From: Campylobacteraceae bacterium
Lineage (GTDB): Bacteria; Campylobacterota; Campylobacteria; Campylobacterales; BB28
Direction of reading: 5' to 3'
DNA: 64,000 bases
NCBI GenBank assembly: GCA_016744535.1
Contig: JADGEE010000003.1
Span: 4,328-68,327, forward strand
The position numbers were made by a program, and so were the translations under genes. A model generated the notes under the pieces. The model was not told the origin of the DNA. It searched no databases and worked only from the letters and a program-made list of their open reading frames with translations. Shown piece by piece: positions 7,107-58,401 of the stretch; the first letter of the stretch is position 1, and each line of letters starts with the position of its first letter.

Positions 7107-7109
7107 TCC

Positions 7110-9748
7110 TTAATTACAAAAGTGTTTTAACCAAATTGCATCAAGTGAAGGGATAGTATCTACACTGTTCCAACTATCATCTGGTGAATTATAGTAGAAA
7201 GCTTTTGTATATCCACCAGTACAACTATCAGGCGTTATATTAGCTCTTCTTAAATCACTCCATTTTAATGGAACTTTTGTACTTACAAAATGCCATGTAT
7301 CTACCGCAAGAGATTTATAATATGCTAACTGTTCTGGTTTGCTTAATATATCATTTGTAGTGTCACTAGTTCCGCTCATCCAAACAGTATCAGATGTTGC
7401 CCCTGGACTTATCCAAAGTCCCATTTTTGGTGTTATAGTTGTTGGCTGTTTACTCCAGCTTGTACCATCAAAACTATAAACATTATTTACAGTTGATTGT
7501 ACATTATTTTTCATAGTAGCACCATTTACAGAGTAGCCGTTTTTAATAGAGACCATATTCCATTTATTTGGAGTAACTGAATAGATTTCAATATTTTCTA
7601 AATCATTTGAGCTATATCCACTACTTGCAAGTGACTTATCAATAGCTAACATAGTTAATACTTTAGGTTCAACTGAATAATTTTCATTATATAATAGTGA
7701 ATAATTTTCAACATTCATCACAAAATTATAAGCAATATCTGTTTCATAGTTATAACCATTTCCGATATGTGTCTCTAGTGTAGTAGAGCCGTGACAAGCT
7801 TCAAAATCTTCAAAAATATTTCCGCCAACTGACATAAAAAACGGATCTCTTGAAGTGTTAAAATCATTTAAACAATTACTTCCATTTCCATCTCTTGCTA
7901 TGTTTCCTGCGATAATAGAGTTTCCTATACTCACAAAAGCTTGTGCACCTTTTATTCCATCTACTGCTGTTTGTTTACTAAGATATATTCCACCTCCACC
8001 ACTTGTATTAGCTTCATTATTTATTATTTTTGAGTTGTAAATATCAATAACTGTTCTTGAATCTGAATCATCATTAACATCTGCATAGATAGCACCTCCA
8101 ATCTCTGCTCTATTTCCAACTAAAGTACTCTCAAAAATTTTTAAGTAATATTTAGCATCACTTCCATCATCATCAATCCTCACAACTCCTCCATAAGTTG
8201 CATTATTTTCCCTAAAAATAGAGTTATTTAATATTAAATGGTCATAAGCACCATAAGAGCCATCAGACATATATCCAACTCCACCACTGTCTCCTGCATA
8301 GTTCTTCACAAAAGTAGAATCATTTACAGTTATATAATTAGAACCATCATATTGGTCAAAGAAAAATACACCACCATCCTTAGTTGCATAATTCTCTTGA
8401 AAGTGAGAGTTATTTATAACTAAGTGTATATCTGAATAATCTGGTTCTAAGAAAAATACACCACCACCCTCACTTGAATCTGTATCATAATTGCCTGTGA
8501 AGTTTGAATCATTAATAATCATATTAATACCACCTCCATCTTCTTAAAGAAAAAATGCACCTCCACCACTTTCAGAGTGATTATCCGTAGCAATAACACG
8601 ATTTAAAATTATATTTACTGCACCATAATCAGAATATAAGTTTCCAATCCCTCCCTCATTAGCAGAATTTCCAGTAAAATTACAATCATTTAATATCAAA
8701 TCTGTAGCTGGTCCATCATTATCAACTTCAAATACTCCACCCTCAGAGCTTGTATTATTCTCTATAAAGCTACTATTTTCAGCTTTAAATCTCATTTTAC
8801 CATCACCATAGAGACGAAAAACTCCACCATCACTACCAGTACTATAATTTTTTATAAATTGTGTTTTATCTACATCTACAAAACAGTCTGAATCATCAGC
8901 ATAACATTTTAAGAAAGCACTATCAGAACTTGATTTATTCATATAAATATAACTATTATCAATTTTTGTAAATATACTTCCTGCGTCTGCCTGTAAATAA
9001 AATGCAGCACTACCACTAAGTACTTCGTTATTAGATATATTAGAATCTTTAATAGATACATATAAATCTCTTGCAACATCTGTATAAAAGATACTTCCAT
9101 GATCACCACTAATATTATTAGAAAATATTGAATTATCTATGTTAAGATAGTTATGCTTCCCAATATTTGAACTATCTTTAGCATAATTATACCCTCCACT
9201 TAAACCATCTAAATATATAACCCCGCCTTTATTATAATTAAGACTTTGAGTAGTATTGTTATCCATAAAGATAGAATTTGTTATATTAAGGTCAGCATCA
9301 TAAAGATATATAGCCCCACCTCTATCTGCTGAATTGTTAGAGATATTTGAATCACTAATAGTGATAACTGCGTTATATGCACTTATCGCACTACCATTTG
9401 ATTCTGTTGTATTTTGAGTTGCATTTCTAATAGAGATATTTGAAAATGTAACATTAGAATCAATTATACTAAATATATATTTAGTATAATTGATTCTAAT
9501 GTTACATCTGCTTGTGCTTGAACTATATCTGTTAAATGTGAACTACCTGCAAAAGTTAAATTTTTGCTAGTTACATTTACTTCCGTCGTTGTAATTGTCC
9601 CACTTATAGTTATTGTATCCCCACTACTTGCACTTGCTACTGCTCCGGCTAAATCATCTCCAGTAACTGTTATTGTTGCTGAATATAATAAATTTGCTGT
9701 TAGCAAACTTGAGAAAATTAAAACTTTTTTTAATGACAATCTTTTCAT
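7110..9748 (-). pseudogene. Pmp-like parallel beta-helix surface protein, disrupted (one frame break, one in-frame TAA)
   Basis: Track ORFs 9464..9802, 8544..9266 and 7110..8522 are pieces of one gene. The first piece has a signal peptide (MKRLSLKKVLIFSSLL), with AGGAG 7 nt upstream of the ATG at 9748. Repeated GG[AV][IF][FY] and N-x-x-F-x-x-N motifs run throughout. The 8544..9266 frame stays open upstream to about 9540. The stop at 8544..8546 is in frame with the ATG at 8522 (GGGAFFL*EDGGGINM). Confidence 0.7.
9446..9507. repeat. perfect 62-bp palindrome (31-bp arms, no spacer)
   Basis: Checked base by base. Positions i and 18953-i are complementary for every i from 9446 to 9476, and the match breaks at 9445/9508. 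The sequence is atgtaacattagaatcaattatactaaatat|atatttagtataattgattctaatgttacat. Confidence 0.95.
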
Positions 9749-27735: not shown

Positions 27736-27777
27736 CGCTTCTCCTTTAATAATAAGCAATCTTTTATTATTTAACAA

Positions 27778-32838: not shown

Positions 32839-32860
32839 AAGAGTAGCTAAGACTACTCTT
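32839..32860. terminator. hairpin terminator between prmC and the first flagellin
   Basis: It forms the hairpin aagagtag-ctaaga-ctactctt. On the minus strand it is followed by a long T-rich run. It overlaps the flagellin stop codon. Confidence 0.5.
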
Positions 32861-34346: not shown

Positions 34347-34402
34347 TTTTAACTCCTTACAAAATTTTTATGGTATCCATACCTTTTATAAAGAATAAAA
34401 AA

Positions 34403-34417
34403 GCAATAAGTGTTCCA
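34403..34417 (-). promoter_or_regulatory. sigma54 promoter of flagellin 32859..34346
   Basis: The minus strand reads tTGGAACacttaTTGCttt. It has exact GG-N10-GC spacing, about 57 nt upstream of the ATG. Confidence 0.7.
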
Positions 34418-34480
34418 AATATTATAGAAGTGGGGAGAAAAAAGTAAGAAAAGAAAAAAGAAAATATTTAAATTAATTAT

Positions 34481-35971: not shown

Positions 35972-35995
35972 AATTAAACCTCCATTTTTATTTTT

Positions 35996-36015
35996 ATGAA
36001 ACTTCCTTGTCTCAT
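35996..36015 (-). promoter_or_regulatory. 5'-UTR hairpin presenting AAGGAA (candidate CsrA site)
   Basis: The minus-strand RNA is AUGAGAC-AAGGAA-GUUUCAU, a 7-bp stem with one G-U pair. It lies upstream of the GGAGG Shine-Dalgarno sequence. Confidence 0.45.
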
Positions 36016-36101
36016 ACTTCTATTCTACAATAGAAAAACTTAAATAAATAATAATAAAAGATGAAATATTTAAAATTAATTTAATAAAATTGTTTAATAA
36101 A

Positions 36102-36130
36102 GCAAAAAAAGAAGAGAAAATACTCTTCTT
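36102..36130 (-). terminator. rho-independent terminator of flagellin 36145..37635
   Basis: On the minus strand it forms the hairpin aagaagag-tatttt-ctcttctt, followed by a T run. Confidence 0.65.
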
Positions 36131-36144
36131 TTATTTTGTAAATA

Positions 36145-41105: not shown

Positions 41106-41895
41106 TTTATATGAATTAGTAAATACTTTAAATAATAGACAAAAAGAGATAGAAATATTAATTGAAGAGATTAAAATTCATCAAAATAATTTACAAAAAG
41201 AGGATTTATATAACTCTTTATGTAGAAGTACAACAATTTTAATTGTTTCTCATTTAGAGGGCTTTATGAAAGATTTGGCAAAAGCAATTATTGATGATAT
41301 AAATGAAAACTTAGACTTTCAAAATATAAATAACAATTTAAAAAAAGTTTTTTGTAAGAAGTTTTTAGGTGAGAAAAAACATGAAAGCGATAAAGAGTAT
41401 ATTGAACGCCAAAATGAGTTAATTAGTACTTTTAATAATTTAGATACAAAACTTACAAAAGAGCCTTTTTTATTTAAAGATAATAAAAATCCAAAATCTG
41501 ATGTTATTAATAAAATTTGTAATAATTTTGGAGTTAGAAATATATTTTCTCATTTAAAAAATTCTAAATTAGATATAGTTTTTGAAGATGATACACAAGA
41601 AATAAGTAATTTATTAGATGAATTATTAGAGTATATTTTAAATCAATTAAGAGTTTATCCTTTTAATTTGAATATTGAGATATTTGATTTGACTCAAAAA
41701 ACTATGCTAAAAGATGAAAAAACACCATTGGAAGAGTTTTTAGAAGAGTTATTAACTAAAAGACACAGTATTGTTCATGGTAATTCAATTAATAATGAAG
41801 AAATACCTGAAAGTTTAATTAGATACAAAAATAAATCATTAATATTACAATATGGAATTATAATAGTTATGATAAACAAGATTTTTACAAGGTAA
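41095..41895 (+). CDS. HEPN-like putative RNase (RiboL-PSP / MAE_28990-like)
   Basis: It has a C-terminal Rx4H motif (LLTKRHSIVHGNS) and an N-terminal SHLEGFMKDL helix. It overlaps the DUF262 gene by 11 nt. Confidence 0.65.
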   Translation: METNLYELVNTLNNRQKEIEILIEEIKIHQNNLQKEDLYNSLCRSTTILIVSHLEGFMKDLAKAIIDDINENLDFQNINNNLKKVFCKKFLGEKKHESDKEYIERQNELISTFNNLDTKLTKEPFLFKDNKNPKSDVINKICNNFGVRNIFSHLKNSKLDIVFEDDTQEISNLLDELLEYILNQLRVYPFNLNIEIFDLTQKTMLKDEKTPLEEFLEELLTKRHSIVHGNSINNEEIPESLIRYKNKSLILQYGIIIVMINKIFTR

Positions 41896-44293: not shown

Positions 44294-47200
44294 ATGGGAA
44301 ATATATTAAAAATAATTTTTAATTTTTGGATTTTAAATATTAGTTTACTCGGTGCCACCTATGAGATAGGAAGTGGTACATCTTATCAGGCTTCAGAAAC
44401 TCATCAGTTTTTACCTGGAACTTTTACAAACGCAAAAGTTCAAATTTTATTAACTGCTTCTGAATTATCAACAGCTGGTTTTTCAGGAGATATTAATGCT
44501 ATAGAGTGGTATGTTGAAACAGATAATACACCTACTGATGTTGTATATGATATATATATAGGACATATAATAAGTACAACTTTGCCAGATAATGCACTAT
44601 TTGATACAACATCGTTAAGTTTATTTGGAAATCAATTAGTTGATGTAGGAAGTTTCACAGGATGGCACGGCTCAAACTTAACTACTAATTTCACTTGGAA
44701 TGGAACAAGCAATATATTAATTCAAATTTGTAGAACAGGAAATTCAAATGGTGACAGTGATAATATAGCCTATTTTGCTGATGGTGGTATACAAATGATT
44801 ACAGGTTATTCTAACTCTTGTAGTGATACTACTGGAACTTATTCAAATACATTTAGACCTTTTTTAAGAATTTCTTCTACTCCACTAATTACAGACACAA
44901 CTCCTCCAACAGTAACAAGTATATTACCAAGTGGCTCACCAACTGCAAGTGACACAAGTGTAACTTTTACAGCTTCATTTAGTGAAGATGTAATAAATAT
45001 AGATACAAGTGATTTTGAATTAACAACAACAGGAACTGCAACTGGAAATATAGTTTCGACTTCAGTTTCTAGTGGAACTAGTGTTGATATTGTGGTTAAT
45101 ACTATTAGTGGAGTAGGCAATATTCGTTTAGATTTAGTAACAAGCCATAACTTAACTGATAGTGCTTCAAATGCTTTAAGTGGAGGATATAATAGTGGAA
45201 CTGTACATAGTGTAGATTTTAAACCAATATCCCCAAGCGATTTAGTAATAACGGCAATAAATGATACACAGATGAGTATAGATTGGGTTGATAATTCAAA
45301 TAATGAAGATAATTTTATACTATATAGCTCTACTAATGGGATTGATTATGAACTAAATGAAACTTTAGCCTCTGATACTATAACTAAATTAATGATGGAT
45401 TTAACTCCAAATACTATTTATTATTTTCAAATTGGTGCGATTAATAGTTATGGAGAAAATAATTCAAGCATTGAAAATAATTCAACATTTGCAACTCAAC
45501 CTATAGTACCAATCAATATTGGTGGCAATAGCAATTCAAATCAAATAGAATTAAATTGGAATGATAGTTCAACTATTGAAACAGGTTTTAAAATTTATAC
45601 CTCTACTGATGGAACTAATTATTCTTTAAATACAACAGTTGGTGCAAATACTACAAATGAAATAATAACAGGTTTGAGTGCAGATACAACATATTACTTT
45701 AAAATAAATTCATATATTCATATTAATTTACTTCTTACTAATTTTGATATAGTAATTAATACTCAAACAGTAACTATAAAAACAAATGACCCAGCTAATT
45801 TTACAGCATTTACAAATTTAAATAAAAATGAAGATTTTAGTGAATTTAATTTACGTATAATAGACTTAACAGACAATGACAGTGATAATTTAGTATTAAG
45901 CGTAGAAAACAATGATAGTTCACTTTTAAACATCACTAGAAGTTGGAATGCTAATTTAACATCAACAGAGTATAATTCTCAAGATTTTAATATCACTTTT
46001 ACATCAATAGCAAATACTTATGGAGTGGCAGAAATTAATGTAAGTAGTTATGACGGAAAAGATTATATAGATAATATATTTCAAATAGTTGTAAATGCCG
46101 TAAATGATATACCAATAATTACTTCAATTACAAACATATATAAAGATATAAATTTTAGTGAATTTAATATAAGTATAAATATTGATGATGTAGACACAAA
46201 TGAGTTAAATATAACAGTAGATGTAAACGATACAAGTTTAATTGATATGAATCAAACTTGGGATAATAATTTAAGTTATGAAGAATATCACTTACAAGAG
46301 TTAAATTTAACTGTAAAATCAAAATCAAATATAGAAGGAGTTGTAAGATTTACAATTTCAGCAGAAGATAATCAATTAAAACCAATTACAACATTTGATT
46401 TAAATATAAGTGCATATAATTATGCTTTAGAAGATTTAAATGCAATATCAATACCATTAACAACAATAGACAATATAGATTTATCTAGTATAGGAGCTAT
46501 AAATTCAAGTAATATAAGTTGGATTTCTAATAATACTGAAGTGCTAAATAGTAGTGGAGTTGTAAACAGGCAAATTAATAATGATGTAATTATAACCCTT
46601 ACAGCAACTTTAAATTTAATTAATACAACACTTACAAAAAACTTTGATATAACGGTAATTAGAATACCATATACTCCACCTCCCTATGTAGAATCAGAGT
46701 CAGAATCAGTTGTTGAAGAAATAACAACTGATAGTTTTAGTGAAGATAGTGGAGTAACACTTGAAATTAGCGAAGATGGAAGTACAAATTTTAATGTAAC
46801 TAGCGTAAGTGAAAGTGGTGAAGTAGTTGAAACACAAACAGAACTTCCATCAGGAACAGAAATTAGTATAAATGAAGCAGGAGAAATTGAGCAAAGTTTT
46901 GTAAGTGAAGATGGAACAGAAATAAAATTAACAACATCACAAACAGGAAAAGTAACACTAAAAGTAACAACAGCAAATGGAGAAGAGGTGAGCTTTGAAG
47001 CCCCAGCTGGGACGAAACTAAAAATAGCGGAAGATGGAAGTTCAAAACAAGATTACTCCACAAAAGATTCAAAAACAGAATTAAAAATAAGTGCAACTGG
47101 AGAGAGTGAATTAAATTTAAAATCAGAAGATGGAAACAAAGTAGAGTTAAAAAGCGAATTAGCTGGAAAAACGGAGTTAAAAGAGAGTGGAGGCTTTAAA

Positions 47201-49153
47201 CAGAGTTTTGAAACTGGAGATAATAAAATATCAATTGAGGGTTCTAAACAAGCAAACTCACAAGCGGTTATAGAGTTACCAAATTTAAAATTAACACTAA
47301 CACCTCCTAAAAATGGAAAAGTATCCGTTAAAAAAGATGGAAGTGTATCAATAGCAAATGACACAATAACTTCAATTGGAACAGTGAAAAGTGAAATGAG
47401 GGTAAATCCAGATACAGGAGATGCTTCAGTAGAGGTTAATATTCAAAGTAATCAAAGAGGAGTAGTCCCTAAAAAAATATTTTATTCAACTAGAAAAGAT
47501 ATATCAAATATAAAATTAGAAGTGATTTTAGATGAGCGAAAAGCTAAATCAAGAGCATTTAATAGCTCAAAAAGTAAAACAGGAAAAATAAAAGCAGTTT
47601 TTTCAACAAGAAAAAGCTTTAATTTTAAGGAAAATATATCAAGGGAAGTTAGTAATAGCTCATTAGGAGTTACACCTTTGAGTGATGCAGAGTTTGAAGA
47701 AAATTTATATTTTGATAATTCACAAGAGTTGAAATTGAAATCAGGAAGTGCAAATATAAAAGGATTTTTTAGCACTAGAGGAAGTTTTTCAAATAAGAGA
47801 AAAACCACAAATACGGATTTGATTAATAATAGAGATTTTAGTATGAAATCAAATAGTGCTATTATGAGTGAAAATAATATTATAGCAACTCTAAATGAGG
47901 GTAATTTAAAAACTGATTTACAAGCAAATTCAAATGGTGATTTAAACATTAATATCACTAATTTTACAAATACAAAAAGAGGTTTAAAAACAACAGCGAA
48001 AAAACTATTTTATTCAGTTAGAAAAGATTTTTCAAATGTGAAAGTAGAAATTATAGAAAATTCAAATCAAAGAGGATTTAAATCACCTAAAATTAAAACA
48101 CTTTTTTCAACAAGAGAAAGCTTTAATTTTAAATCCTCAAATTTAAGAACAGTAGATGAAATAGAGATAATTCCAGTAGATGAAAACACAACATTTACTG
48201 AAAATATATTAGAAGATGGAAGTAGATATATAGAGTTAATTTCAGGTACAGCTAGTATTAATAGTGAAACTATGATTTTAAATAAAAGTTATGAACTTCC
48301 TGCACTAGAATTAATTGAAGTGGTAGAAGATTTAATTATAAATCAAGAGGTAAAATTAGAGTTACAAAAAGAGTGGAATTTAATTTCAACTCCAATATCA
48401 GAAGATATTAGTGATAAATTTATATTTCAAGATTATGATTTAATTTGGAATTTTAAAGATAATAATTGGGTTAAGAATCCAAGCATTTTATATTATGAAG
48501 ATGGATATTGGATAAAAACAGATAGCGAAAATAATATAACTTTTAAAGGTAGTAGTTATACTCCTAACTTAAAAAGAGTTGTTTCAACTTGGGCATTAGT
48601 TGGAACTGGAACAGAAATTAATGATATAAATAATTTAATAAGTGAAGAAAAAATTAAAGAAATTTATCAATTTAAAGATAATAAATGGTTAAAGTCAAAT
48701 GATATTAATTCACTAAATATTGGTGATGGTTTTTGGATAAAAAAGATACCAGCAGATTTTATATTTAATATCAAAGAGGGTTGGAATTTACTATCACTTC
48801 CAACAAAAGAGATAATTTCAAATATGTCTATTTTTGGTGACTATGAAGAGATATTAATTTATGATAATAAAGAGTGGATTAAAAATCCAAACCAAATAAA
48901 GCCAATGCAGGGGTTTTGGATAAACTCTAATGAAAACATATCACTTGCTTTTTACGGAGAGGGATATAATATTGATATCAACTCTTTAAGTATTGGTTGG
49001 TCGCTTGTGGGCGGAAATATTAATTTTGAAAATTTAAAATTTTCTGAAATTAAATCAATATTACTATTTAAAAATGATAAATGGACTACGGTTGATTCTT
49101 TTAAAAATATTGATTTAATTAAAAAAGCTGATGGTTTTTGGATTTTAAAATAA
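44294..49153 (+). CDS. giant surface protein (Ig-like, 2x FN3, NDxP cadherin/tandem-95-like repeats, shared tail)
   Basis: 1619 aa with an N-terminal hydrophobic leader. It has an Ig-like segment (TDTTPPTVTSILP...) and two FN3 units (...TIYYFQIGAINSYG; ...TTYYFKINSY). It also has VNAVNDIPIITSI repeats and a bacterial Ig unit (ISWISNNTEVLNSSGVV...LTATL). From YVESESES onward it matches the tail of the next ORF. Confidence 0.85.
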   Translation: MGNILKIIFNFWILNISLLGATYEIGSGTSYQASETHQFLPGTFTNAKVQILLTASELSTAGFSGDINAIEWYVETDNTPTDVVYDIYIGHIISTTLPDNALFDTTSLSLFGNQLVDVGSFTGWHGSNLTTNFTWNGTSNILIQICRTGNSNGDSDNIAYFADGGIQMITGYSNSCSDTTGTYSNTFRPFLRISSTPLITDTTPPTVTSILPSGSPTASDTSVTFTASFSEDVINIDTSDFELTTTGTATGNIVSTSVSSGTSVDIVVNTISGVGNIRLDLVTSHNLTDSASNALSGGYNSGTVHSVDFKPISPSDLVITAINDTQMSIDWVDNSNNEDNFILYSSTNGIDYELNETLASDTITKLMMDLTPNTIYYFQIGAINSYGENNSSIENNSTFATQPIVPINIGGNSNSNQIELNWNDSSTIETGFKIYTSTDGTNYSLNTTVGANTTNEIITGLSADTTYYFKINSYIHINLLLTNFDIVINTQTVTIKTNDPANFTAFTNLNKNEDFSEFNLRIIDLTDNDSDNLVLSVENNDSSLLNITRSWNANLTSTEYNSQDFNITFTSIANTYGVAEINVSSYDGKDYIDNIFQIVVNAVNDIPIITSITNIYKDINFSEFNISINIDDVDTNELNITVDVNDTSLIDMNQTWDNNLSYEEYHLQELNLTVKSKSNIEGVVRFTISAEDNQLKPITTFDLNISAYNYALEDLNAISIPLTTIDNIDLSSIGAINSSNISWISNNTEVLNSSGVVNRQINNDVIITLTATLNLINTTLTKNFDITVIRIPYTPPPYVESESESVVEEITTDSFSEDSGVTLEISEDGSTNFNVTSVSESGEVVETQTELPSGTEISINEAGEIEQSFVSEDGTEIKLTTSQTGKVTLKVTTANGEEVSFEAPAGTKLKIAEDGSSKQDYSTKDSKTELKISATGESELNLKSEDGNKVELKSELAGKTELKESGGFKQSFETGDNKISIEGSKQANSQAVIELPNLKLTLTPPKNGKVSVKKDGSVSIANDTITSIGTVKSEMRVNPDTGDASVEVNIQSNQRGVVPKKIFYSTRKDISNIKLEVILDERKAKSRAFNSSKSKTGKIKAVFSTRKSFNFKENISREVSNSSLGVTPLSDAEFEENLYFDNSQELKLKSGSANIKGFFSTRGSFSNKRKTTNTDLINNRDFSMKSNSAIMSENNIIATLNEGNLKTDLQANSNGDLNINITNFTNTKRGLKTTAKKLFYSVRKDFSNVKVEIIENSNQRGFKSPKIKTLFSTRESFNFKSSNLRTVDEIEIIPVDENTTFTENILEDGSRYIELISGTASINSETMILNKSYELPALELIEVVEDLIINQEVKLELQKEWNLISTPISEDISDKFIFQDYDLIWNFKDNNWVKNPSILYYEDGYWIKTDSENNITFKGSSYTPNLKRVVSTWALVGTGTEINDINNLISEEKIKEIYQFKDNKWLKSNDINSLNIGDGFWIKKIPADFIFNIKEGWNLLSLPTKEIISNMSIFGDYEEILIYDNKEWIKNPNQIKPMQGFWINSNENISLAFYGEGYNIDINSLSIGWSLVGGNINFENLKFSEIKSILLFKNDKWTTVDSFKNIDLIKKADGFWILK

Positions 49154-49168
49154 AATAAATTTAAATAA
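46682..49168 (+). repeat. copy 1 of a 2,487-bp direct repeat
   Basis: It aligns to 53707..56193 at an offset of 7,025 bp. The encoded proteins are identical except for A/S (G49127 against T56152). The antisense ORF translations are also identical. The repeat runs 15 nt past the stop codon. Confidence 0.9.
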
Positions 49169-49185
49169 TAGATAAGGATGTAAAA

Positions 49186-52100
49186 ATGAAAAATATATTT
49201 TTAAAAATTATAGTATTAATTCTATTTTTTTTAGTAACTTTTGTAAATGCAGATATAAATATATCTCAAAAAGCCCACGCTGGAGTAATGCAATTTAATG
49301 GAACAAGTTATATTATAGCTTCAGAACCAAATTTAACAACATATAATACATTTACTTCTGAAGCTTGGTTTCAACCAAGTTATATGTTAGATGGAACTAA
49401 TTATGATTTAGTTAGAGTAGATGATCAATTAATTAGAATTTCTTATTCTGGAGGATCATATTATTTACTTGTTGGTATCGGCTCTGGTTTAGGATATGAA
49501 GAGTTTACTACAGATATTTCATCAATTTTTGAAATAAATAATTGGAATCATGTAACTATGACTTATGATGGTGATTTTATTAGAGGATATATAAACGGTG
49601 AAGAAGTTATAAATTCTAATAAAACTAATGATGGAAACTTAATAAATGGAGATAATGATAATAACTTAACCATAGGAATCTCTACAACCACAACATATGG
49701 ATATGTAAATCTGTTTAAAGGTTTAATGGATGAAGTTAGAGTTTGGAATATAGCTAGAAGCTCAACAGAAATTAATTCAACAATGAATAAACAATTAGAT
49801 GGAAATGAGAGTGGATTAGTAGCATATTATAATTTTGATGAAGTTGTTGGAAATATTGTAATAGATATTGCTAATAGTGATTATAATGGAACAATTGAAG
49901 GAAATGGCACAAGACTTAATTTTTTAGGAGATGGTCTTAATTTTGATGGAGATGATGATTATGTAAATATTAATGATGATAATTCTACAAATACTCATTT
50001 ATATGCTTTAGATGGAAATATTACACTTAGTAGTTGGATTAAAATAGATGGACTTCATAGTACAACTTATTCAGAAGTTATAAGTAGATATGGAACTAGC
50101 AATGGATATATTTTAAGAGTAAAGAATAGTAGTGGTATTATCCAAATGGTAAATAAAAATGCAGATACAGAACATAATATATCTAGTACAAAAGCTATTA
50201 CCGATAATCTATGGCACTATATAGTAGCCACTTATGATGGGAGTTACCAAAGATTATACATTGATGGGATTGAAAATAATTCTACTTATGTTGGTGCTAA
50301 CGCCATTGGTGCTTCTGCTGGTACATTAACTTTTGGTGCTACAAGCACATTAGTTAGTGAATTAAAAGGAAATATAGCAGAAACTTCAATTTGGAATAGA
50401 GCTTTAAGTGAGAGAGAAATTAATAAGTATATGTATATTTCATTAGATGGAAATGAGAGTGGATTATTAGGTTACTGGTCACTAAATGAAGGCGATGGTA
50501 ATATAACTTATGATAGAAGTTCTTATGCTAATGAAGGAAATATAAGTGGTGCAGAGTGGAACACCACAGCCCCAATAATTTATGGAAATAATTTATATAC
50601 GCAAGGATTATCTACTAAAATAGTTAAATTAAATGTAGAAAATAATATAACAGAAGCAATACTAGCTGACCCTTTAACTCCTGCAAATGGAAGTGTAGAT
50701 TTTAACTCTTCATTTGCTACATATAGTTATATTCCAACTGATTATATAGATGATACTTTTATAATTAATGCAAATGATACTTCAACAGAAGCAAATTTAA
50801 CCATTAATATTAAAAAAAGAAATATGTATGGTCTAATAGATACAAATGAATCAGTAAATTTTGGATTAACTGATGTAGCTGTTACAAAAACTTTGACTAT
50901 TAATAATTTAAATTTAGGTGATTTAATAATAGATAATGTCTATCTTACAAATAGTTTTAATTCAACTTTTGAAATAGTTAATAATTGTAGCACTGCTTTA
51001 TCAGCAAATACAAGTTGTGATATTAATATAACTTACACTCCTCAAATAAATGATTTTAGAGCAACTACATTACAAATAGAATCAAATGATGCTTTTGATT
51101 CTAATAAAAATATTATGATTTATGGTTATGGACAGGGTTTTGGAGAGATAAAAGGAAATGCTAACCACTCCTTAGCAGTTAAAAGAGACAATACTCTTTG
51201 GGCTTGGGGAAATAATTTAGAAGGACAACTTGGAGATGGAACTAATACAGATAGCAATACACCTATTCAAATATTAACAGATGTAATATCAGTAGATGGA
51301 TATGACCATACTCTAGCACTTAAAAAAGATGGAACTCTTTGGGCTTGGGGAAATAACACTTACGGACAACTTGGAGATGAAAATGATACAAATTTAAATA
51401 CACCAACTCAAATATCATTAAATAATATAGTAAAATTGGAAACTGGTGGTAATCACAGTATGGTATTAGATAGTAATGGAAAAGTTTGGAGTTGGGGATA
51501 TAATGCAAATGGAGAACTTGGAGATGGAAATAATACAGATTTAAATATACCAACTAAAATATCTTCATTAACAGATATAGTTTCAATTTCAGCAGGTGGC
51601 AATCATAATTTAGCCCTAAAAAATGATGGTAGTGTATGGAGTTGGGGAAAAAATCATAAGGGGCAATTAGGAGATAATTCAATTGTAAATAATTCTACAC
51701 CAACTAAAATATCCTCACTAAGTAATATAATTTATATATCTGCTGGAAATGCTCATAATTTTGCAATAAAAAATGATGGAACGATTTGGGGATGGGGATA
51801 TAATGGAGTTGGAGCATTAGGTGACGGAACTAATACAGATAGATATGCACCAACTCAAATCACTTCATTAACTGATATCTTATTCATTGAGAGTGGAGGT
51901 GACCATACTTTAGCGTTAGATAGTAATAACATTCTTTGGAGTTCAGGATATAATGTATCAGGGCAACTTGGTGACGGAAATAATACAGATAAAAATACCT
52001 TTACTCAAATATCTTCACTAAGTGATATAAAGATAGTAATTGGAGGAGATAAAGATACTTTAGCAGTAGATAATAATGGAAGTGTCTGGAGTTTTGGGGA

Positions 52101-55100
52101 TAACACTTATGGACAATTAGGAGATGAAACTATTATAAATAAAAATACTCCAACTGATATAAATTTTAATTTATATACAACGAATATACAATTTAATTTA
52201 ACAAATATAAATTTAAGTGAACATAATATTACTTCTATTAAAATTTATGGAGTTGATGATAATAGTGAAGAGTTTAATTTAACAAACTTAATAGATGGTG
52301 ATAATAATTTTACGACTTTAATTTATAATTTTGATAATAATTACTCAATTGAATTAAATGTTAGTGTTAATACAATTGAGACTAATTGGTATTATAATTT
52401 TAATGACGGACTATTATATCCTGATAATAATTTAAGTGATGAGTTTAAAAATCAGTTAAATATTACAAATAATCTGTTTTTAATTGATACTAATTCAATA
52501 AATTGGAATATTCCAAATATAATATATACTGGAGAAGAGTATACATTAACAAAAGATATTATTCATAATAATAATTTAACAATTGAAGCAAATGCTACAC
52601 TTTATACAGATGATTATAATTTAACGATAGATGGTGATTTAATTTTATATGGAAGCATAATTAGTAGTTCTAATATTACAGTAAAAGGAGATACCTATAT
52701 ATGGTTAGGAGAATCTGCTAACTCATCAATTAATGATGAATTAATACTAAATGGAGATTTAACTTTTTCATCAGTAACTGGAGATAGTAGATTTTATCAA
52801 CCTTTTATTAATAAACTTAGTTTAAATAGTAGTAGTTCTCAAAATATTTATATGGATAGTATTTCTTGGCAATATTATTTTAACTCAATAGAGTTAAATA
52901 ATACTAATGAAGTAAATTTTTATCTTAATAATTATAATGGAATAGATGTAAGTGGAAGTTTTACACAAAATTCAACTCCAATAAATATTTATAGCAATGG
53001 AACTTTAATATCTACAACTCCTAGTTTTGAATATTTTTATTTTTATGATACCGAAAATTATCAATTTAATACAGTCCCTTATATCGAAACATTATTTATT
53101 GATAATACGCAAATAATAGATTTTAATTTTACTGCAAATAATATTGTTATGTCTTATAATTATGATATAAATTCAACAGGAGAGATAAGTTCAACTCCGC
53201 CAGATATAACTAATTTAATAACAGCAGAATCCACTTATAATACTTTAAAATATTTTATTGATGTAACATCAGATAGTGGTTATGATTTAAATTTAATAAC
53301 TTTACCAAATTATAATATATATTATATAAGTTTTAATAATTTAAAAGGTGAAATAAAAAATTTAACATCAACACTAAGTGGTGTATCTTTTTATAATACA
53401 AATGAGATAAATATATCAAATTCAAATTTTACTTTGGAATATATGAATATTGATTCTTATTCAAAAATAAATTTAATTGATTCGGATATTAATATAAATA
53501 GTTCACTATATGTATATGATTCAAACATTAGTTTAACAAATTCTGATTTATTTACAAATTATCTGTCTATGAGTGGTGAATCAAATTATACAAAAGATAG
53601 TACAAGTTCATTTAGTTTTATAAATTCAGATACAAGTTTAATATCAGATATTATTGAAAGTTCACCAACACCTACACCTACAGCAACTTCAAGTGTAAAT
53701 GTAACCCCCTATGTAGAATCAGAGTCAGAATCAGTTGTTGAAGAAATAACAACTGATAGTTTTAGTGAAGATAGTGGAGTAACACTTGAAATTAGCGAAG
53801 ATGGAAGTACAAATTTTAATGTAACTAGCGTAAGTGAAAGTGGTGAAGTAGTTGAAACACAAACAGAACTTCCATCAGGAACAGAAATTAGTATAAATGA
53901 AGCAGGAGAAATTGAGCAAAGTTTTGTAAGTGAAGATGGAACAGAAATAAAATTAACAACATCACAAACAGGAAAAGTAACACTAAAAGTAACAACAGCA
54001 AATGGAGAAGAGGTGAGCTTTGAAGCCCCAGCTGGGACGAAACTAAAAATAGCGGAAGATGGAAGTTCAAAACAAGATTACTCCACAAAAGATTCAAAAA
54101 CAGAATTAAAAATAAGTGCAACTGGAGAGAGTGAATTAAATTTAAAATCAGAAGATGGAAACAAAGTAGAGTTAAAAAGCGAATTAGCTGGAAAAACGGA
54201 GTTAAAAGAGAGTGGAGGCTTTAAACAGAGTTTTGAAACTGGAGATAATAAAATATCAATTGAGGGTTCTAAACAAGCAAACTCACAAGCGGTTATAGAG
54301 TTACCAAATTTAAAATTAACACTAACACCTCCTAAAAATGGAAAAGTATCCGTTAAAAAAGATGGAAGTGTATCAATAGCAAATGACACAATAACTTCAA
54401 TTGGAACAGTGAAAAGTGAAATGAGGGTAAATCCAGATACAGGAGATGCTTCAGTAGAGGTTAATATTCAAAGTAATCAAAGAGGAGTAGTCCCTAAAAA
54501 AATATTTTATTCAACTAGAAAAGATATATCAAATATAAAATTAGAAGTGATTTTAGATGAGCGAAAAGCTAAATCAAGAGCATTTAATAGCTCAAAAAGT
54601 AAAACAGGAAAAATAAAAGCAGTTTTTTCAACAAGAAAAAGCTTTAATTTTAAGGAAAATATATCAAGGGAAGTTAGTAATAGCTCATTAGGAGTTACAC
54701 CTTTGAGTGATGCAGAGTTTGAAGAAAATTTATATTTTGATAATTCACAAGAGTTGAAATTGAAATCAGGAAGTGCAAATATAAAAGGATTTTTTAGCAC
54801 TAGAGGAAGTTTTTCAAATAAGAGAAAAACCACAAATACGGATTTGATTAATAATAGAGATTTTAGTATGAAATCAAATAGTGCTATTATGAGTGAAAAT
54901 AATATTATAGCAACTCTAAATGAGGGTAATTTAAAAACTGATTTACAAGCAAATTCAAATGGTGATTTAAACATTAATATCACTAATTTTACAAATACAA
55001 AAAGAGGTTTAAAAACAACAGCGAAAAAACTATTTTATTCAGTTAGAAAAGATTTTTCAAATGTGAAAGTAGAAATTATAGAAAATTCAAATCAAAGAGG

Positions 55101-56178
55101 ATTTAAATCACCTAAAATTAAAACACTTTTTTCAACAAGAGAAAGCTTTAATTTTAAATCCTCAAATTTAAGAACAGTAGATGAAATAGAGATAATTCCA
55201 GTAGATGAAAACACAACATTTACTGAAAATATATTAGAAGATGGAAGTAGATATATAGAGTTAATTTCAGGTACAGCTAGTATTAATAGTGAAACTATGA
55301 TTTTAAATAAAAGTTATGAACTTCCTGCACTAGAATTAATTGAAGTGGTAGAAGATTTAATTATAAATCAAGAGGTAAAATTAGAGTTACAAAAAGAGTG
55401 GAATTTAATTTCAACTCCAATATCAGAAGATATTAGTGATAAATTTATATTTCAAGATTATGATTTAATTTGGAATTTTAAAGATAATAATTGGGTTAAG
55501 AATCCAAGCATTTTATATTATGAAGATGGATATTGGATAAAAACAGATAGCGAAAATAATATAACTTTTAAAGGTAGTAGTTATACTCCTAACTTAAAAA
55601 GAGTTGTTTCAACTTGGGCATTAGTTGGAACTGGAACAGAAATTAATGATATAAATAATTTAATAAGTGAAGAAAAAATTAAAGAAATTTATCAATTTAA
55701 AGATAATAAATGGTTAAAGTCAAATGATATTAATTCACTAAATATTGGTGATGGTTTTTGGATAAAAAAGATACCAGCAGATTTTATATTTAATATCAAA
55801 GAGGGTTGGAATTTACTATCACTTCCAACAAAAGAGATAATTTCAAATATGTCTATTTTTGGTGACTATGAAGAGATATTAATTTATGATAATAAAGAGT
55901 GGATTAAAAATCCAAACCAAATAAAGCCAATGCAGGGGTTTTGGATAAACTCTAATGAAAACATATCACTTGCTTTTTACGGAGAGGGATATAATATTGA
56001 TATCAACTCTTTAAGTATTGGTTGGTCGCTTGTGGGCGGAAATATTAATTTTGAAAATTTAAAATTTTCTGAAATTAAATCAATATTACTATTTAAAAAT
56101 GATAAATGGACTACGGTTGATTCTTTTAAAAATATTGATTTAATTAAAAAATCTGATGGTTTTTGGATTTTAAAATAA
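49186..56178 (+). CDS. giant surface protein (2x LamG, 7-blade RCC1 propeller, Asn-rich region, shared tail)
   Basis: 2330 aa with a signal peptide. It has two LamG/ConA-like units (...GLMDEVRVWNIARS; ...GNIAETSIWNRALS) and seven RCC1 repeats ([WG]G.N..G[QEA]LGD). Its tail matches that of the preceding ORF. Confidence 0.85.
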   Translation: MKNIFLKIIVLILFFLVTFVNADINISQKAHAGVMQFNGTSYIIASEPNLTTYNTFTSEAWFQPSYMLDGTNYDLVRVDDQLIRISYSGGSYYLLVGIGSGLGYEEFTTDISSIFEINNWNHVTMTYDGDFIRGYINGEEVINSNKTNDGNLINGDNDNNLTIGISTTTTYGYVNLFKGLMDEVRVWNIARSSTEINSTMNKQLDGNESGLVAYYNFDEVVGNIVIDIANSDYNGTIEGNGTRLNFLGDGLNFDGDDDYVNINDDNSTNTHLYALDGNITLSSWIKIDGLHSTTYSEVISRYGTSNGYILRVKNSSGIIQMVNKNADTEHNISSTKAITDNLWHYIVATYDGSYQRLYIDGIENNSTYVGANAIGASAGTLTFGATSTLVSELKGNIAETSIWNRALSEREINKYMYISLDGNESGLLGYWSLNEGDGNITYDRSSYANEGNISGAEWNTTAPIIYGNNLYTQGLSTKIVKLNVENNITEAILADPLTPANGSVDFNSSFATYSYIPTDYIDDTFIINANDTSTEANLTINIKKRNMYGLIDTNESVNFGLTDVAVTKTLTINNLNLGDLIIDNVYLTNSFNSTFEIVNNCSTALSANTSCDINITYTPQINDFRATTLQIESNDAFDSNKNIMIYGYGQGFGEIKGNANHSLAVKRDNTLWAWGNNLEGQLGDGTNTDSNTPIQILTDVISVDGYDHTLALKKDGTLWAWGNNTYGQLGDENDTNLNTPTQISLNNIVKLETGGNHSMVLDSNGKVWSWGYNANGELGDGNNTDLNIPTKISSLTDIVSISAGGNHNLALKNDGSVWSWGKNHKGQLGDNSIVNNSTPTKISSLSNIIYISAGNAHNFAIKNDGTIWGWGYNGVGALGDGTNTDRYAPTQITSLTDILFIESGGDHTLALDSNNILWSSGYNVSGQLGDGNNTDKNTFTQISSLSDIKIVIGGDKDTLAVDNNGSVWSFGDNTYGQLGDETIINKNTPTDINFNLYTTNIQFNLTNINLSEHNITSIKIYGVDDNSEEFNLTNLIDGDNNFTTLIYNFDNNYSIELNVSVNTIETNWYYNFNDGLLYPDNNLSDEFKNQLNITNNLFLIDTNSINWNIPNIIYTGEEYTLTKDIIHNNNLTIEANATLYTDDYNLTIDGDLILYGSIISSSNITVKGDTYIWLGESANSSINDELILNGDLTFSSVTGDSRFYQPFINKLSLNSSSSQNIYMDSISWQYYFNSIELNNTNEVNFYLNNYNGIDVSGSFTQNSTPINIYSNGTLISTTPSFEYFYFYDTENYQFNTVPYIETLFIDNTQIIDFNFTANNIVMSYNYDINSTGEISSTPPDITNLITAESTYNTLKYFIDVTSDSGYDLNLITLPNYNIYYISFNNLKGEIKNLTSTLSGVSFYNTNEINISNSNFTLEYMNIDSYSKINLIDSDININSSLYVYDSNISLTNSDLFTNYLSMSGESNYTKDSTSSFSFINSDTSLISDIIESSPTPTPTATSSVNVTPYVESESESVVEEITTDSFSEDSGVTLEISEDGSTNFNVTSVSESGEVVETQTELPSGTEISINEAGEIEQSFVSEDGTEIKLTTSQTGKVTLKVTTANGEEVSFEAPAGTKLKIAEDGSSKQDYSTKDSKTELKISATGESELNLKSEDGNKVELKSELAGKTELKESGGFKQSFETGDNKISIEGSKQANSQAVIELPNLKLTLTPPKNGKVSVKKDGSVSIANDTITSIGTVKSEMRVNPDTGDASVEVNIQSNQRGVVPKKIFYSTRKDISNIKLEVILDERKAKSRAFNSSKSKTGKIKAVFSTRKSFNFKENISREVSNSSLGVTPLSDAEFEENLYFDNSQELKLKSGSANIKGFFSTRGSFSNKRKTTNTDLINNRDFSMKSNSAIMSENNIIATLNEGNLKTDLQANSNGDLNINITNFTNTKRGLKTTAKKLFYSVRKDFSNVKVEIIENSNQRGFKSPKIKTLFSTRESFNFKSSNLRTVDEIEIIPVDENTTFTENILEDGSRYIELISGTASINSETMILNKSYELPALELIEVVEDLIINQEVKLELQKEWNLISTPISEDISDKFIFQDYDLIWNFKDNNWVKNPSILYYEDGYWIKTDSENNITFKGSSYTPNLKRVVSTWALVGTGTEINDINNLISEEKIKEIYQFKDNKWLKSNDINSLNIGDGFWIKKIPADFIFNIKEGWNLLSLPTKEIISNMSIFGDYEEILIYDNKEWIKNPNQIKPMQGFWINSNENISLAFYGEGYNIDINSLSIGWSLVGGNINFENLKFSEIKSILLFKNDKWTTVDSFKNIDLIKKSDGFWILK
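51140..52160 (+). other. seven RCC1-like beta-propeller blades inside the 2330-aa ORF
   Basis: The motifs EGQLGDG, YGQLGDE, NGELGDG, KGQLGDN, VGALGDG, SGQLGDG and YGQLGDE recur at ~50-aa spacing. Each is preceded by a [LV]W[AS]WG-like motif. Confidence 0.8.
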
Positions 56179-56193
56179 AATAAATTTAAATAA
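53707..56193 (+). repeat. copy 2 of a 2,487-bp direct repeat
   Basis: See copy 1. The left boundary is ccctatgtagaatc and the right boundary is ...taaaataaatttaaataa. Confidence 0.9.
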
Positions 56194-56211: not shown

Positions 56212-58401
56212 ATGAAAAGATTTTTTGTTACTTTATTTAGTTCTATTATGATAGTAATGCTGATGCTTGGTGCGTACATATATCTACCTTTATATTTTGA
56301 AACTTTTGATAATAAGATAAGAGATACATATTTTGTAGTTAGAGGTGAGAGACCTACAAGTGAAGATATTATAATAGTTGATATTGATGAGAAAAGTTTA
56401 GCTGAATTAGGACAATGGCCTTGGGAGAGAGTTAAAGTTGCACAAGTAATAGAAAATTTAACTGAAGCTGGAGTTGGAATCATTGGATTTGATATTGTTT
56501 TTGCTGAAGCTGATAATAGTTCTCCTAAAAAAGTGGCTGATTTTATTGGTCTTGATTTAGAACAAGTGCCTGAGATGAACATTGATTATGATGAAATTTT
56601 AGCTGAAAGTGTTGCTAATACTCCAACAATTTTAGGTTATATTTTTGATATAGCTCAAAATAATACTAAAAATGAAGATATATTTATAAATCTTCCTGCA
56701 ATTTATATTGAAAAAAACTTAATGAGTGACACTATGATTAATCCAACTCGAGCAATTTTAAATGTAGATGTACTTCAAGATGCAAGTTACTCAACTGGTT
56801 ATTTTAATGCTCAACCTGACGGAGATGGTGTTGTTAGAAGTGTTCCTCTACTTATGAAATTTAATGATGATATCTATCCTGCATTATCATTTGAAATGGT
56901 TAGAATTTTATTAGATGAATCTAAAGTTATTATTAATCATAATGAAATTGGAGTTGAGAGTATAGAGATGGGTGAAAAAATTATTCCAGTTGATAGATAC
57001 TCAAGACTTTTAATTAATTATAAAGGACCTGGAAAAAGTTATAAATATCTATCTATGAGTGATATTTATAATAAAAATTTTGAGCCTAAAGATGTTGAGG
57101 GGAAATTCGTATTAATTGGAACATCAGCACAAGGTCTTTTGGATTTAAGAACTACTCCATTTGATAGTGTTTATCCAGGTGTTGAAGTTCACGCAACTGC
57201 AATTGATAATATATTAAATGGAGATTTTATATCACGACCTAATTGGGCAGAAGAGGTAGATATGTTCTCTATTATAGGAATTGGTATAATTCTTGCAATT
57301 CTACTTTCAATTGCTTCACCTGTTTGGATGTTTATTATAGCTTCAATTTCCGTTATAGGAATTGTAGGGGCTAACTACTATCTATTTGTAGAAGAGGGTT
57401 ATATTATAAATATTATTTTTCCTATTTTAACAGCAATATCTGTAATTTTTATATCTAATATTATTAGTTACTTTTTAGAATCAAAACAGAAAGAGATGAT
57501 TAAAGGTAAATTTGCATCTAAAGTCTCACCTGCTGTTATGGAAGACTTAATTAAACAAGGTAATACAGATGTATTTGAAGGCAATGAACGAGATGTTACA
57601 GTCTTTTTCTCTGATGTTAGAGGATTTACAAATATCTCTGAAGCTATGAAAGAAGGAGCTAAAACACCAGGTGAGGGAGCTAAGAATTTAATTAATTTTT
57701 TAAATGAATATATGGATCCTATGACAGAAATTATTATAGATGAAGAGGGAACTATTGATAAATTTATAGGTGATGCTATTATGGCTTATTGGAATGCTCC
57801 AAATGATGTTAAAAATCATCCAGATAAAGCCCTATCAGCTGCTATTAGACAAATTGAAGGATTAATACCTTTAAATAAAAGCTTAAGTGCTAAAAATAAA
57901 CCATTTATTGATATTGGAATTGGTCTCAATACTGGTCCAGTTGTTGTTGGAGAGATGGGTTCAAAAGGGCGTTCTGATTATACAGTTATTGGAGATGCTA
58001 TTAATTTAGGAGCTAGGCTTGAATCTCTTTGTAAAGGTTATGGAGCTAGGATAATAATTTCAGAATATATGAAAGTTCTACTTAAAAAAGAGTATATTAT
58101 TAGAGATTTAGATTTAGTTAAAGTAAAAGGTAAATCTGAACCTGTTGAAATTTTTGAAGTTTATGGATTTGGATATGCGGAGGGAAGACTTAAAGAAGAG
58201 TTAGATAAATTCAATAAAGCAGTTCACTTATATAGAAATTCAAACTTTAAAGAAGCTTTAGAGATTTTTAGTAATATTAATACTTGGGAAGATAAAGCTA
58301 ATAAGAAAATTTATGATACTTATATCTTTAGATGTGAGCATTATATAAGTGAGCCTCCAACTGATTTTGATGGTGTTTGGACTCATACTACTAAGGGATA
58401 A
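56212..58401 (+). CDS. CHASE2-sensor class III adenylate/guanylate cyclase
   Basis: It has an N-terminal TM helix plus a CHASE2 domain (IIIVDIDEKSLAELGQWPWER) and three or four TM helices. Cyclase motifs are VTVFFSDVRGFTNISE, FIGDAIMAYWNAP and GDAINLGARLESL. It ends in a TPR-like tail. Confidence 0.85.
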   Translation: MKRFFVTLFSSIMIVMLMLGAYIYLPLYFETFDNKIRDTYFVVRGERPTSEDIIIVDIDEKSLAELGQWPWERVKVAQVIENLTEAGVGIIGFDIVFAEADNSSPKKVADFIGLDLEQVPEMNIDYDEILAESVANTPTILGYIFDIAQNNTKNEDIFINLPAIYIEKNLMSDTMINPTRAILNVDVLQDASYSTGYFNAQPDGDGVVRSVPLLMKFNDDIYPALSFEMVRILLDESKVIINHNEIGVESIEMGEKIIPVDRYSRLLINYKGPGKSYKYLSMSDIYNKNFEPKDVEGKFVLIGTSAQGLLDLRTTPFDSVYPGVEVHATAIDNILNGDFISRPNWAEEVDMFSIIGIGIILAILLSIASPVWMFIIASISVIGIVGANYYLFVEEGYIINIIFPILTAISVIFISNIISYFLESKQKEMIKGKFASKVSPAVMEDLIKQGNTDVFEGNERDVTVFFSDVRGFTNISEAMKEGAKTPGEGAKNLINFLNEYMDPMTEIIIDEEGTIDKFIGDAIMAYWNAPNDVKNHPDKALSAAIRQIEGLIPLNKSLSAKNKPFIDIGIGLNTGPVVVGEMGSKGRSDYTVIGDAINLGARLESLCKGYGARIIISEYMKVLLKKEYIIRDLDLVKVKGKSEPVEIFEVYGFGYAEGRLKEELDKFNKAVHLYRNSNFKEALEIFSNINTWEDKANKKIYDTYIFRCEHYISEPPTDFDGVWTHTTKG

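Follow-up and report, generated by a model that had tools for sequence, protein, structure and literature searches.

Two adjacent, co-oriented genes of a Campylobacteraceae bacterium, here called A and B, probably encode giant Sec-exported proteins that have different heads and one common C-terminal cassette, made near-identical by a recent gene conversion or tail transfer. They lie in a stretch of 64,000 nucleotides (nt) of contig JADGEE010000003.1 (assembly GCA_016744535.1, positions 4,328 to 68,327, forward strand), which was analyzed as a whole and is referred to below as the window; positions are counted from its first letter, and the features discussed are collected in Table 1.

The first-pass annotation of this DNA, made from its letters alone, had described a direct repeat at an offset of 7,025 with a single mismatch, and had proposed a comparison of the window with itself as the check. 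Base-by-base comparison and BLASTN of the window against itself both return this pair, 46682-49168 and 53707-56193, as a repeat of 2,487 nt; it is by far the strongest in the window, and a repeat finder seeds the same start. The copies match at 2,486 of the 2,487 positions. The one mismatch, G49127 against T56152, falls at the first codon position and sets GCT (Ala, gene A) against TCT (Ser, gene B), which is indeed the only residue difference, as had been claimed; only 42 nt separate it from the 3′ edge, which puts unique sequence within reach of a single assembly k-mer (k = 99). The repeat comprises the last 823 codons of both genes (the annotation had put the shared tail at about 820 residues), the TAA stop (49151-49153 in gene A) and, again as described, 15 nt past the stop. 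A chance origin is excluded because no other paralogs in the window come close: the runners-up, three flagellin genes, reach just 82-92% nt identity in the same self-comparison.

Both edges of the repeat are abrupt. From 46681 back, the upstream sequences are unrelated except for a CC run, and each gene has its own, different proline/threonine-rich (P/T) linker there; beyond the 15 nt that follow the stop, two different contexts of ribosome-binding site and ATG begin, one belonging to gene B and the other to a cyclase gene. Inside the coding sequence, 24 nt within each 5′ edge, lies a hairpin of 11 perfect base pairs and a 6-nt loop (46705-46732 and 53730-53757). Folded as DNA, 46705-46732 reaches -8.2 kcal/mol (z = -4.0 against shuffles); the hairpin might act in stalling or template switching, or be a coincidence. 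A 54-nt match at 41458 (repeat family D5, 72% identity) was dismissed as chance.

Ahead of the tails, the two proteins are unrelated: a BLASTP comparison of the heads finds no similarity (best E 1.1). Gene A encodes a signal-peptide-like N-terminus (MGNILKIIFNFWILNISLLGA), an unknown N-domain, two fn3 domains, repeats of ~106 amino acids (aa), an aBig_2 domain and the tail; Pfam places fn3 at residues 313-392 and aBig_2 at 726-789. In gene B, a signal peptide (MKNIFLKIIVLILFFLVTFVNA) is followed by two Laminin_G_3 domains, a choice-of-anchor-D/ASH-like Ig domain, an RCC1 propeller, N-x-T-rich modules, a P/T linker and the tail; the Laminin_G_3 pair and a full RCC1 propeller are Pfam matches, to which NCBIfam adds the choice-of-anchor-D-like domain. 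The contrast drawn earlier between a fn3/Ig head and a LamG/RCC1 head therefore stands, whereas its cadherin component does not: Pfam finds no cadherin domain in gene A, although one does occur in an A-like relative (P0009). This domain content suggests that A and B are exported by Sec as giant extracellular or surface proteins, and that their heads may bind ligands, through fn3/Ig-like domains in A and through lectin-like LamG domains plus the RCC1 propeller in B. A near-identical tail behind unrelated heads is the pattern expected of conversion between surface-protein paralogs.

Where else does this tail occur? Word-index homology searches are nearly blind to such a low-complexity, AT-biased sequence: the whole tail retrieved only P0001, and its terminal 270 aa only P0080. 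A HMMER search run exhaustively over 1.84 billion representatives recovered 294 proteins at E<1e-3. The full tail is carried by a small group only, and most matches have just its last part, that is, a pre-terminal module (..ITP...FEE..YFDG.R.I.L.SG.A.I..) and one tryptophan-rich (W-rich) unit of ~130 aa (GWNLxSxP ... W.Y...W..NP ... G.GFW[IV]K[KR]), which mostly stands at or near the extreme C-terminus. The heads of the family, read by eye, are highly varied (subtilisin-like, streptopain-like, LamG, RCC1, PKD-like, nuclease-like), and two members (P0008 and P0013) are a signal peptide plus the tail alone. The first-pass annotation saw in this one locus a head that varies on a stalk and anchor that do not; as a picture of changing heads on a fixed C-terminal cassette, this is right and extends to a family.

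Three relatives are informative about the history of the two genes. P0009 has an A-like head, 43% identical to that of gene A, and a tail that is ~29% identical; P0007/L007 joins an A-like head to its tail through the same aBig_2-to-tail junction as gene A; and P0011 has a B-like RCC1 head, 42% identical to gene B over the RCC1 region and the downstream N-x-T modules, on a tail that is ~28-32% identical to that in the window and ends in a single terminal unit. Because A-type and B-type heads elsewhere carry their own strongly diverged tails, both head-tail pairings appear to be much older than the identity seen here, and a recent conversion or tail transfer between genes that already had tails is favored over a simple duplication. 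The original diagnosis, a very recent duplication or ongoing conversion, was thus right in kind, and the relatives shift it toward the second of its options. The identity also stands out against the relatives. Within the genome the tails differ once; the sole close relative, L009, a 632-bp contig of ERZ25073493, is ~85% identical in nt to either window copy across the final ~500 nt, a stretch in which the window copies differ at one base; and the next relatives are 48% identical at the protein level. Among the latter, P0001/P0002 represent one locus seen in two metagenome-assembled genomes (MAGs) from sulfidic caves, with the full tail (48% identity) and a head of a third kind. Homogenization is not general, since the tail genes P0007 and P0009, which come from one metagenome, are 49% identical, and a third tail gene in the window is only ~29% identical to the A/B tail. 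No tandem A-B pair was found in relatives; the scans of genome contigs and of metagenome contigs returned one locus each.

The short contig L009 (1-632) has two features of its own: an in-frame TAA where the window has GAA (Glu), and another signal-peptide gene beginning 17 nt past the tail stop. The latter hints that in this lineage, too, tail genes are succeeded by other exported-protein genes.

How would the two tails have become the same? The event would be a recent non-reciprocal recombination, either conversion of the whole tail or replacement of the 3′ part of one gene by that of its neighbor. The tract would reach the limits of homology, which upstream is the boundary between P/T linker and acidic linker and downstream the point 15 nt past the stop. 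The tail of gene A would be the likelier donor because its aBig_2-to-tail junction is kept in P0007/L007 and because the converted tail has two terminal units, as in A-type tails, where P0011 has one; from the conserved junction, the tail of A looks native to A. Once in place, such copies have consequences. Direct repeats of 2.5 kb are good substrates for RecA. These could serve homologous deletion or amplification of the 7,025-bp unit made of a tail plus head B, and deletion between them would join the tail of head A to the cyclase gene.

The same arrangement could have been produced, with a lower but not negligible probability, by a recent segmental duplication and fusion: the tail of A, from linker to 15 nt past the stop, would have been copied downstream and joined to a LamG/RCC1 head cassette, making gene B a young chimera. 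A possible route is Campbell-type integration into the tail of a circle from another strain that carried head B plus tail. The edges of the repeat agree with this, for the identity ends abruptly on both sides, with no flanking gradient of decaying similarity, and the ends coincide with module borders; so do the many occasions on which heads have been shuffled onto tails in this family, and the two terminal units of the B tail, which it shares with A-type tails while the B-like P0011 has one. However, at least two events are required, a tail-less head B is needless when B-like head-plus-tail genes exist elsewhere, and with the present data the product cannot be distinguished from that of whole-tail conversion.

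A programmed head switch (a shufflon, for instance, or a phase-variation cassette) with the repeats serving as its recombination sites is extremely improbable. The direct repeats do flank head B, and each has a perfect hairpin 24 nt inside its 5′ edge; yet no recombinase, invertase or integrase gene is present among the neighbors scanned, the repeats are direct and 2.5 kb long instead of short inverted sites, and other tail loci have no conserved partner genes. The lack of a recombinase among the scanned neighbors and the direct orientation of the repeats led us to reject it.

How far can the identity itself be trusted? The source of the DNA is Byfjorden, at 69 m, where a biofilm had formed on cow bone; the abundant Campylobacterales MAGs of the study were Thiovulaceae, Sulfurovaceae and Arcobacteraceae. 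The DNA was sequenced on a HiSeq4000 (2×150 bp, ~300-bp inserts), and four biofilm samples were co-assembled with metaSPAdes at k = 21-99 (Borchert et al., 2021; PMC7883544). The early warning that assemblers may collapse or mis-join such a region turned out to be central with 2×150-bp metaSPAdes data. An exact look-up of the product of gene B found no record, and two further records of the same DNA were reached through the cyclase and queC genes: ENA scaffold BORC21-1_SAMN14087007_METAG-scaffold_189 (L012), assembled from a single sample, and Logan contigs of run SRR11072026 from PRJNA606180.

Several points weigh against a recent conversion or tail transfer between exported proteins. First, with 2×150-bp reads and ~300-bp inserts, no read or read pair spans 2.5 kb; the assembler walks one collapsed node twice, so the identity of the interior is partly by construction, and the sole mismatch retained lies where the k = 99 graph can still separate the copies. 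Many silent differences, which the first-pass annotation would have taken as an argument against recent conversion, are absent from the alignment in the sense that it shows one mismatch, its interior being subject to the same caveat. One mismatch in 2,487 nt is therefore no measurement of divergence, because the interior identity was not independently observed. Second, the window contig and L012 differ at 36 positions, all in two of the flagellin genes, fla2 (35026-35235) and fla3 (36989-37303), and at 36 of these 36 the other assembly has the base of the other paralog. Differences between paralogs are thus unstable in this dataset; the 36 disagreements may reflect assembler phasing errors or real conversion variants in the population. 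Third, the signal peptides of A and B were judged by eye only, which touches the export part of the reading. Fourth, conversion and duplication plus fusion can be told apart only with closer relatives, and the evidence for A as donor is weak: one conserved junction and the number of units. Fifth, as regards anchoring by the tail, the W-rich unit lies near the N-terminus in ~12% of the family matches, and none of the six neighborhoods examined has a conserved secretion or anchoring gene beside the tail gene.

The two tail copies are nevertheless real, whatever the exact sequence of their interiors. All four sides of the copies have distinct flanks, and L012 agrees with the window contig across genes A and B with 0 differences and the same A-tail-B-tail order. 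Head B has tail sequence on both sides: ahead of its start codon lie the tail end with the G variant and then a 17-nt spacer that is unique. Since the 5′ side of head B follows a tail end and its 3′ side runs into a tail start, any genome with B has a tail on either side of this head. The Logan contig starts exactly 30 nt (k-1, with k = 31) inside the 3′ end of copy 2 and runs into the cyclase gene; a break at k-1 is the signature of a graph branch at a repeat edge and so indicates two real right-hand flanks. It is accordingly very unlikely that the path A-tail-B-tail-cyclase mis-joins strain variants and that no single genome has two full tails. What would point that way is the nature of the data, a short-read metaSPAdes co-assembly of four biofilm samples with a repeat that far exceeds the insert size, together with the paralog swaps in the flagellin genes and a 62-bp perfect palindrome that breaks another gene of the contig and looks like an assembly scar; against it stand the tail sequence on both sides of head B in the assembly graph, the exact agreement of single-sample scaffold and co-assembly over the locus, and the Logan break.

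More plausible, though still unlikely, is that the copies are real and their identity overstated, bulge removal having collapsed interior differences, so that the event is older than it appears. The position of the only kept mismatch within k of a unique flank fits this, as does the behavior of the flagellin paralogs. Two indirect bounds limit how much could have been lost. The phasable edges of the repeat (its first and last ~127 nt) hold 1 difference in 254 nt, which puts uniform divergence below ~1.9% (Poisson, 95%). In addition, the assemblies disagree at about one third of the sites that distinguish fla2 from fla3 (36 of ~110) and at 0 of the 2,487 tail positions, which suggests, very roughly, fewer than ~8 hidden differences in the tails. 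These bounds suggest a true identity of at least 98-99.6%; near-identity of the tails is likely, and the exact figure is no measurement.

If the tails have been exchanged between genes, what are they? No sequence match was found for the tail in Pfam, NCBIfam or the PDB; a profile search of PDB sequences gave noise only (E>0.04), and when 34 family members were scanned against Pfam for a consensus (E<=1), no common family emerged. Judged by its sequence and its distribution, the tail is an old, autonomous, so far unnamed module absent from these databases. It opens with an acidic, putatively flexible linker and contains repeated parts (Table 1). The two basic, amphipathic 'STR' β modules are 42% identical to each other (E 5e-19); the first has a succession of motifs that is kept in relatives: YSTRKD..K.E.I, then K.K..FSTR.SF.FK, then ..P...FEEN.YF...L.L.SG.A.I. 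The two W-rich terminal units are 30% identical (E 3e-20).

Structure prediction divides the tail into a poorly and a well modeled part. The AlphaFold2 (AF2) model of the whole tail, from a two-sequence alignment, is poor overall; residues ~25-260 form a regular β-meander with strands of ~6 residues and turns of 5 (predicted local distance difference test, pLDDT, 70-86). Its best Foldseek matches in the PDB include native and engineered OspA single-layer sheets (E ~5e-4, probability ~0.9, low template modeling score, TM-score). A rigid OspA-like single-layer stalk is a reasonable reading of this model, and the word 'stalk' chosen in the first-pass annotation suits the first ~240 residues, modeled as an extended meander. 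The last 334 residues, modeled from a 34-sequence alignment, reach a mean pLDDT of 93 and consist of small strand-and-helix units with no barrel. Foldseek found nothing for this terminal model in the PDB at E<1e-3 (best were cupins and vicilins, TM ~0.15); in BFVD, the match to a marine-phage protein labeled 'putative hemin binding protein' (E 2e-4, TMq 0.33) was too weak to name the fold.

The other word of that annotation, 'anchor', fares worse. Profile searches find distant relatives of the W-rich unit (GWNLxSLP ... G.GYW[IV]) in Bathyarchaeia, Magnetomoraceae and Bacteroidota (P0205, P0187, P0201 and P0178), so that it looks like a widespread extracellular domain not in Pfam. In the Bacteroidota protein P0205, it precedes a genuine type A sorting domain of the type IX secretion system (T9SS). 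Because it has archaeal relatives and coexists with a separate T9SS sorting domain, the W-rich unit is more readily seen as a binding module than as a signal for sorting; adding the N-terminal position in ~12% of matches and the lack of partner machinery, an anchoring role of the tail is unproven. From its position and the variety of its partner domains, the W-rich domain most likely binds something, either the cell's own envelope, as a means of retention, or an external polymer.

Known export systems were compared feature by feature. The tail has no Pfam or NCBIfam match to the T9SS C-terminal domain (CTD; PF18962/TIGR04183-type). For a type V autotransporter, Pfam finds no barrel (PF03797 or similar), the terminal model is not a barrel, and the protein ends in ...FWILK. 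For an RTX/LapA-like adhesin of type I secretion, there is no RTX match in Pfam, both N-termini are hydrophobic and signal-like, and the neighbors are queC and the CHASE2 cyclase gene. As to Slam/type XI secretion cargo, no SlipAM (DUF560) translocator gene is present among the scanned window genes or at other tail loci, save a weak one two genes upstream at a single locus (L002). By the features tested, the tail is none of these four. The L002 locus (854-9877), from the sulfidic-cave relative, has its tail gene preceded by a weak TPR/SlipAM-like gene of outer-membrane type, a gene for a 670-aa FecR-domain protein and an 85-aa open reading frame (ORF); this combination of FecR and TPR/SlipAM-like genes is a one-off, absent from the other tail loci examined.

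What would the locus mean if the tails proved identical on single molecules? It would be a clean natural case of modular head exchange and concerted evolution, seen in the giant surface proteins of a biofilm bacterium that cycles sulfur and has not been cultured, and a ready-made 7-kb deletion/amplification switch by which the adhesion targets of the cell could change; the substrate of the source community is bone, with its abundant collagen and glycoproteins. A bolder version is improbable: that the tail is an undescribed, self-sufficient surface-display cassette in which stalk and STR modules carry W-rich domains whose ligand is the cell's own envelope, used by Campylobacterota as a general means of presenting interchangeable heads, and that the A/B locus is a working head-exchange site at which the LamG/RCC1 head is deleted, amplified or replaced in the bone-biofilm population. 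Irrespective of this, the tail marks a domain family outside Pfam, NCBIfam and the PDB, with ~300 cluster representatives and distant archaeal and Bacteroidota relatives, and annotation and structural work on it would be reasonable, given the confidently predicted fold. The locus also carries a warning for short-read MAGs: assembly can itself create a 'near-perfect' identity of paralogs, and the flagellin genes at a distance of 10 kb exhibit such behavior, or else real population variants.

Table 1. Coordinates of genes A and B, their repeat copies, tail modules and other features mentioned in the text (window positions; tail modules are given for copy 1, with copy 2 in parentheses).
Feature	Position	Strand	Basis or content
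Gene A, 1,619 aa	44294..49153	+	ORF; fn3/aBig_2 head + common tail
Gene B, 2,330 aa	49186..56178	+	ORF; LamG/RCC1 head + common tail
Repeat copy 1	46682..49168	+	823-codon tail, stop, 15 nt beyond
Repeat copy 2	53707..56193	+	offset +7,025
Sole mismatch	49127 (G, Ala) vs 56152 (T, Ser)	+	base-by-base comparison
Acidic Ser/Glu linker, tail residues 1-24	46682..46753 (53707-53778)	+	contains 11-bp perfect hairpin 46705-46732
β-meander 'stalk', tail residues ~25-260	46754..47461 (53779-54486)	+	AF2 pLDDT 70-86; Foldseek OspA matches
Basic 'STR' module 1, tail residues 264-360	47471..47761 (54496-54786)	+	internal duplication; 54-nt DNA repeat family D4
Basic 'STR' module 2 = pre-terminal module, tail residues 439-527	47996..48262 (55021-55287)	+	end within high-confidence AF2 model
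W-rich terminal unit 1, tail residues 557-690	48350..48751 (55375-55776)	+	GWNLxSxP ... W.F...W..NP ... G.GFWIK; pLDDT 93
W-rich terminal unit 2, tail residues 691-823	48752..49150 (55777-56175)	+	ends ...DGFWILK-stop
CHASE2 sensor + class III nucleotide cyclase gene	56212..58401	+	33 nt after gene B
Three tandem flagellin genes	32859-37635	-	82-92% nt identity
Third tail-family member, 536 aa	5496..7106	-	signal peptide, P/T linker, β-meander, pre-terminal module, one W-rich unit; no Pfam match
Pmp-like GGxF-repeat protein (fourth, weak family member)	7110..8522	-	weak diverged W-rich unit near C-terminus; sequence comparison

The A/B pair lies between queC, upstream, and the CHASE2 cyclase gene. 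Genes A and B and the cyclase gene are consecutive on the plus strand with gaps of 32-33 nt, and no terminator-like sites were found between them; being on one strand, closely spaced and uninterrupted by such a site, the three are probably co-transcribed. In the neighborhoods compared, the CHASE2 cyclase gene is not conserved beside tail genes elsewhere. The product of 5496-7106 is the third tail-family member whose ~29% identity was cited above as a case that escaped homogenization. Next to it, the Pmp-like GGxF-repeat protein, which has a signal peptide, is apparently split into three ORFs on the minus strand (9464-9802, 8544-9266 and 7110-8522), and the 62-bp perfect palindrome (9446-9507) lies inside this split gene (7110-9802); it may have arisen in assembly, as a scar, or mark an inversion breakpoint.

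The window as a whole has 27.6% GC, and encodes a four-subunit pyruvate:ferredoxin oxidoreductase and several flagellins with Flagellin_IN. Together with the MAG families of the bone-biofilm study, these features point to Campylobacterota, possibly Arcobacteraceae. On the minus strand, 25726-27777 encodes a 683-aa protein that matches Flagellin_N and Flagellin_C only weakly, at its ends, and has no match along its long middle; it may be hook-associated or an atypical flagellin-like protein. A GmrSD_N-domain gene and the HEPN gene (RiboL-PSP / MAE_28990-type) that follows and overlaps it occupy 40002-41895, flanked by topA on one side and a metallophosphoesterase gene on the other; the pair is a candidate two-gene defense module. 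Genes for a YfiR/HmsC-like protein, a TonB-dependent receptor and a CHASE8-SpoIIE phosphatase stand in a row at 12657-17150, the receptor ORF (13238-15631) and the phosphatase ORF (15456-17150) overlapping by ~175 nt as listed.

How does the A/B locus compare with systems already described? C-terminal sorting or anchoring domains are found on unrelated secreted proteins, as in the GW modules of Listeria and in SLH domains. The tail resembles these and the T9SS CTD in having a compact, β-rich domain at the extreme C-terminus behind unrelated heads, here with the terminal motif G-x-G-F-W-[IV]-K; unlike them, it has no sequence or fold match to any of the three, is N-terminal in ~12% of cases, has archaeal relatives and co-occurs with a true T9SS CTD. 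The long antiparallel β-meander predicted for tail residues ~25-260 recalls the single-layer sheet of Borrelia OspA, but the match is weak (E ~5e-4, low TM-score, pLDDT 70-86) and unaccompanied by sequence homology. Campylobacter flaA and flaB are tandem flagellin paralogs; like these and the flagellin trio of the window (82-92%), A and B are co-oriented tandem paralogs apparently subject to homogenization, whereas flagellins are homologous over their full length and A and B share the tail only. Neighboring genes for very large modular surface proteins are also known from Apilactobacillus kunkeei, in which Giant1-5 form an array of consecutive giant extracellular protein genes; there, the phylum, the envelope type and the domains are all different (PMC12863079).

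The closest parallel is with the adhesins of Helicobacter pylori, in which babA/babB/babC and sabA/sabB undergo gene conversion and concerted evolution of shared segments (PMC4552749; PMC3444412). The Bab and Sab proteins share a C-terminal outer-membrane β-barrel and are encoded at dispersed loci, unlike the soluble-looking cassette and tandem genes found here, and conversion at the A/B locus is deduced rather than demonstrated across strains. Conversion between paralogs of the H. pylori Hop family of adhesins was reportedly described by Pride and Blaser in 2002. In both cases, apparently within the same phylum, paralogs with divergent ligand-binding parts have a C-terminal part that is near-identical within a genome, and in bab and sab the outcome of recombination is chimeric genes and variation in the head that is expressed. 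By this analogy, the A/B locus is ordinary copy-and-paste between surface-protein genes, kin to bab/sab conversion.

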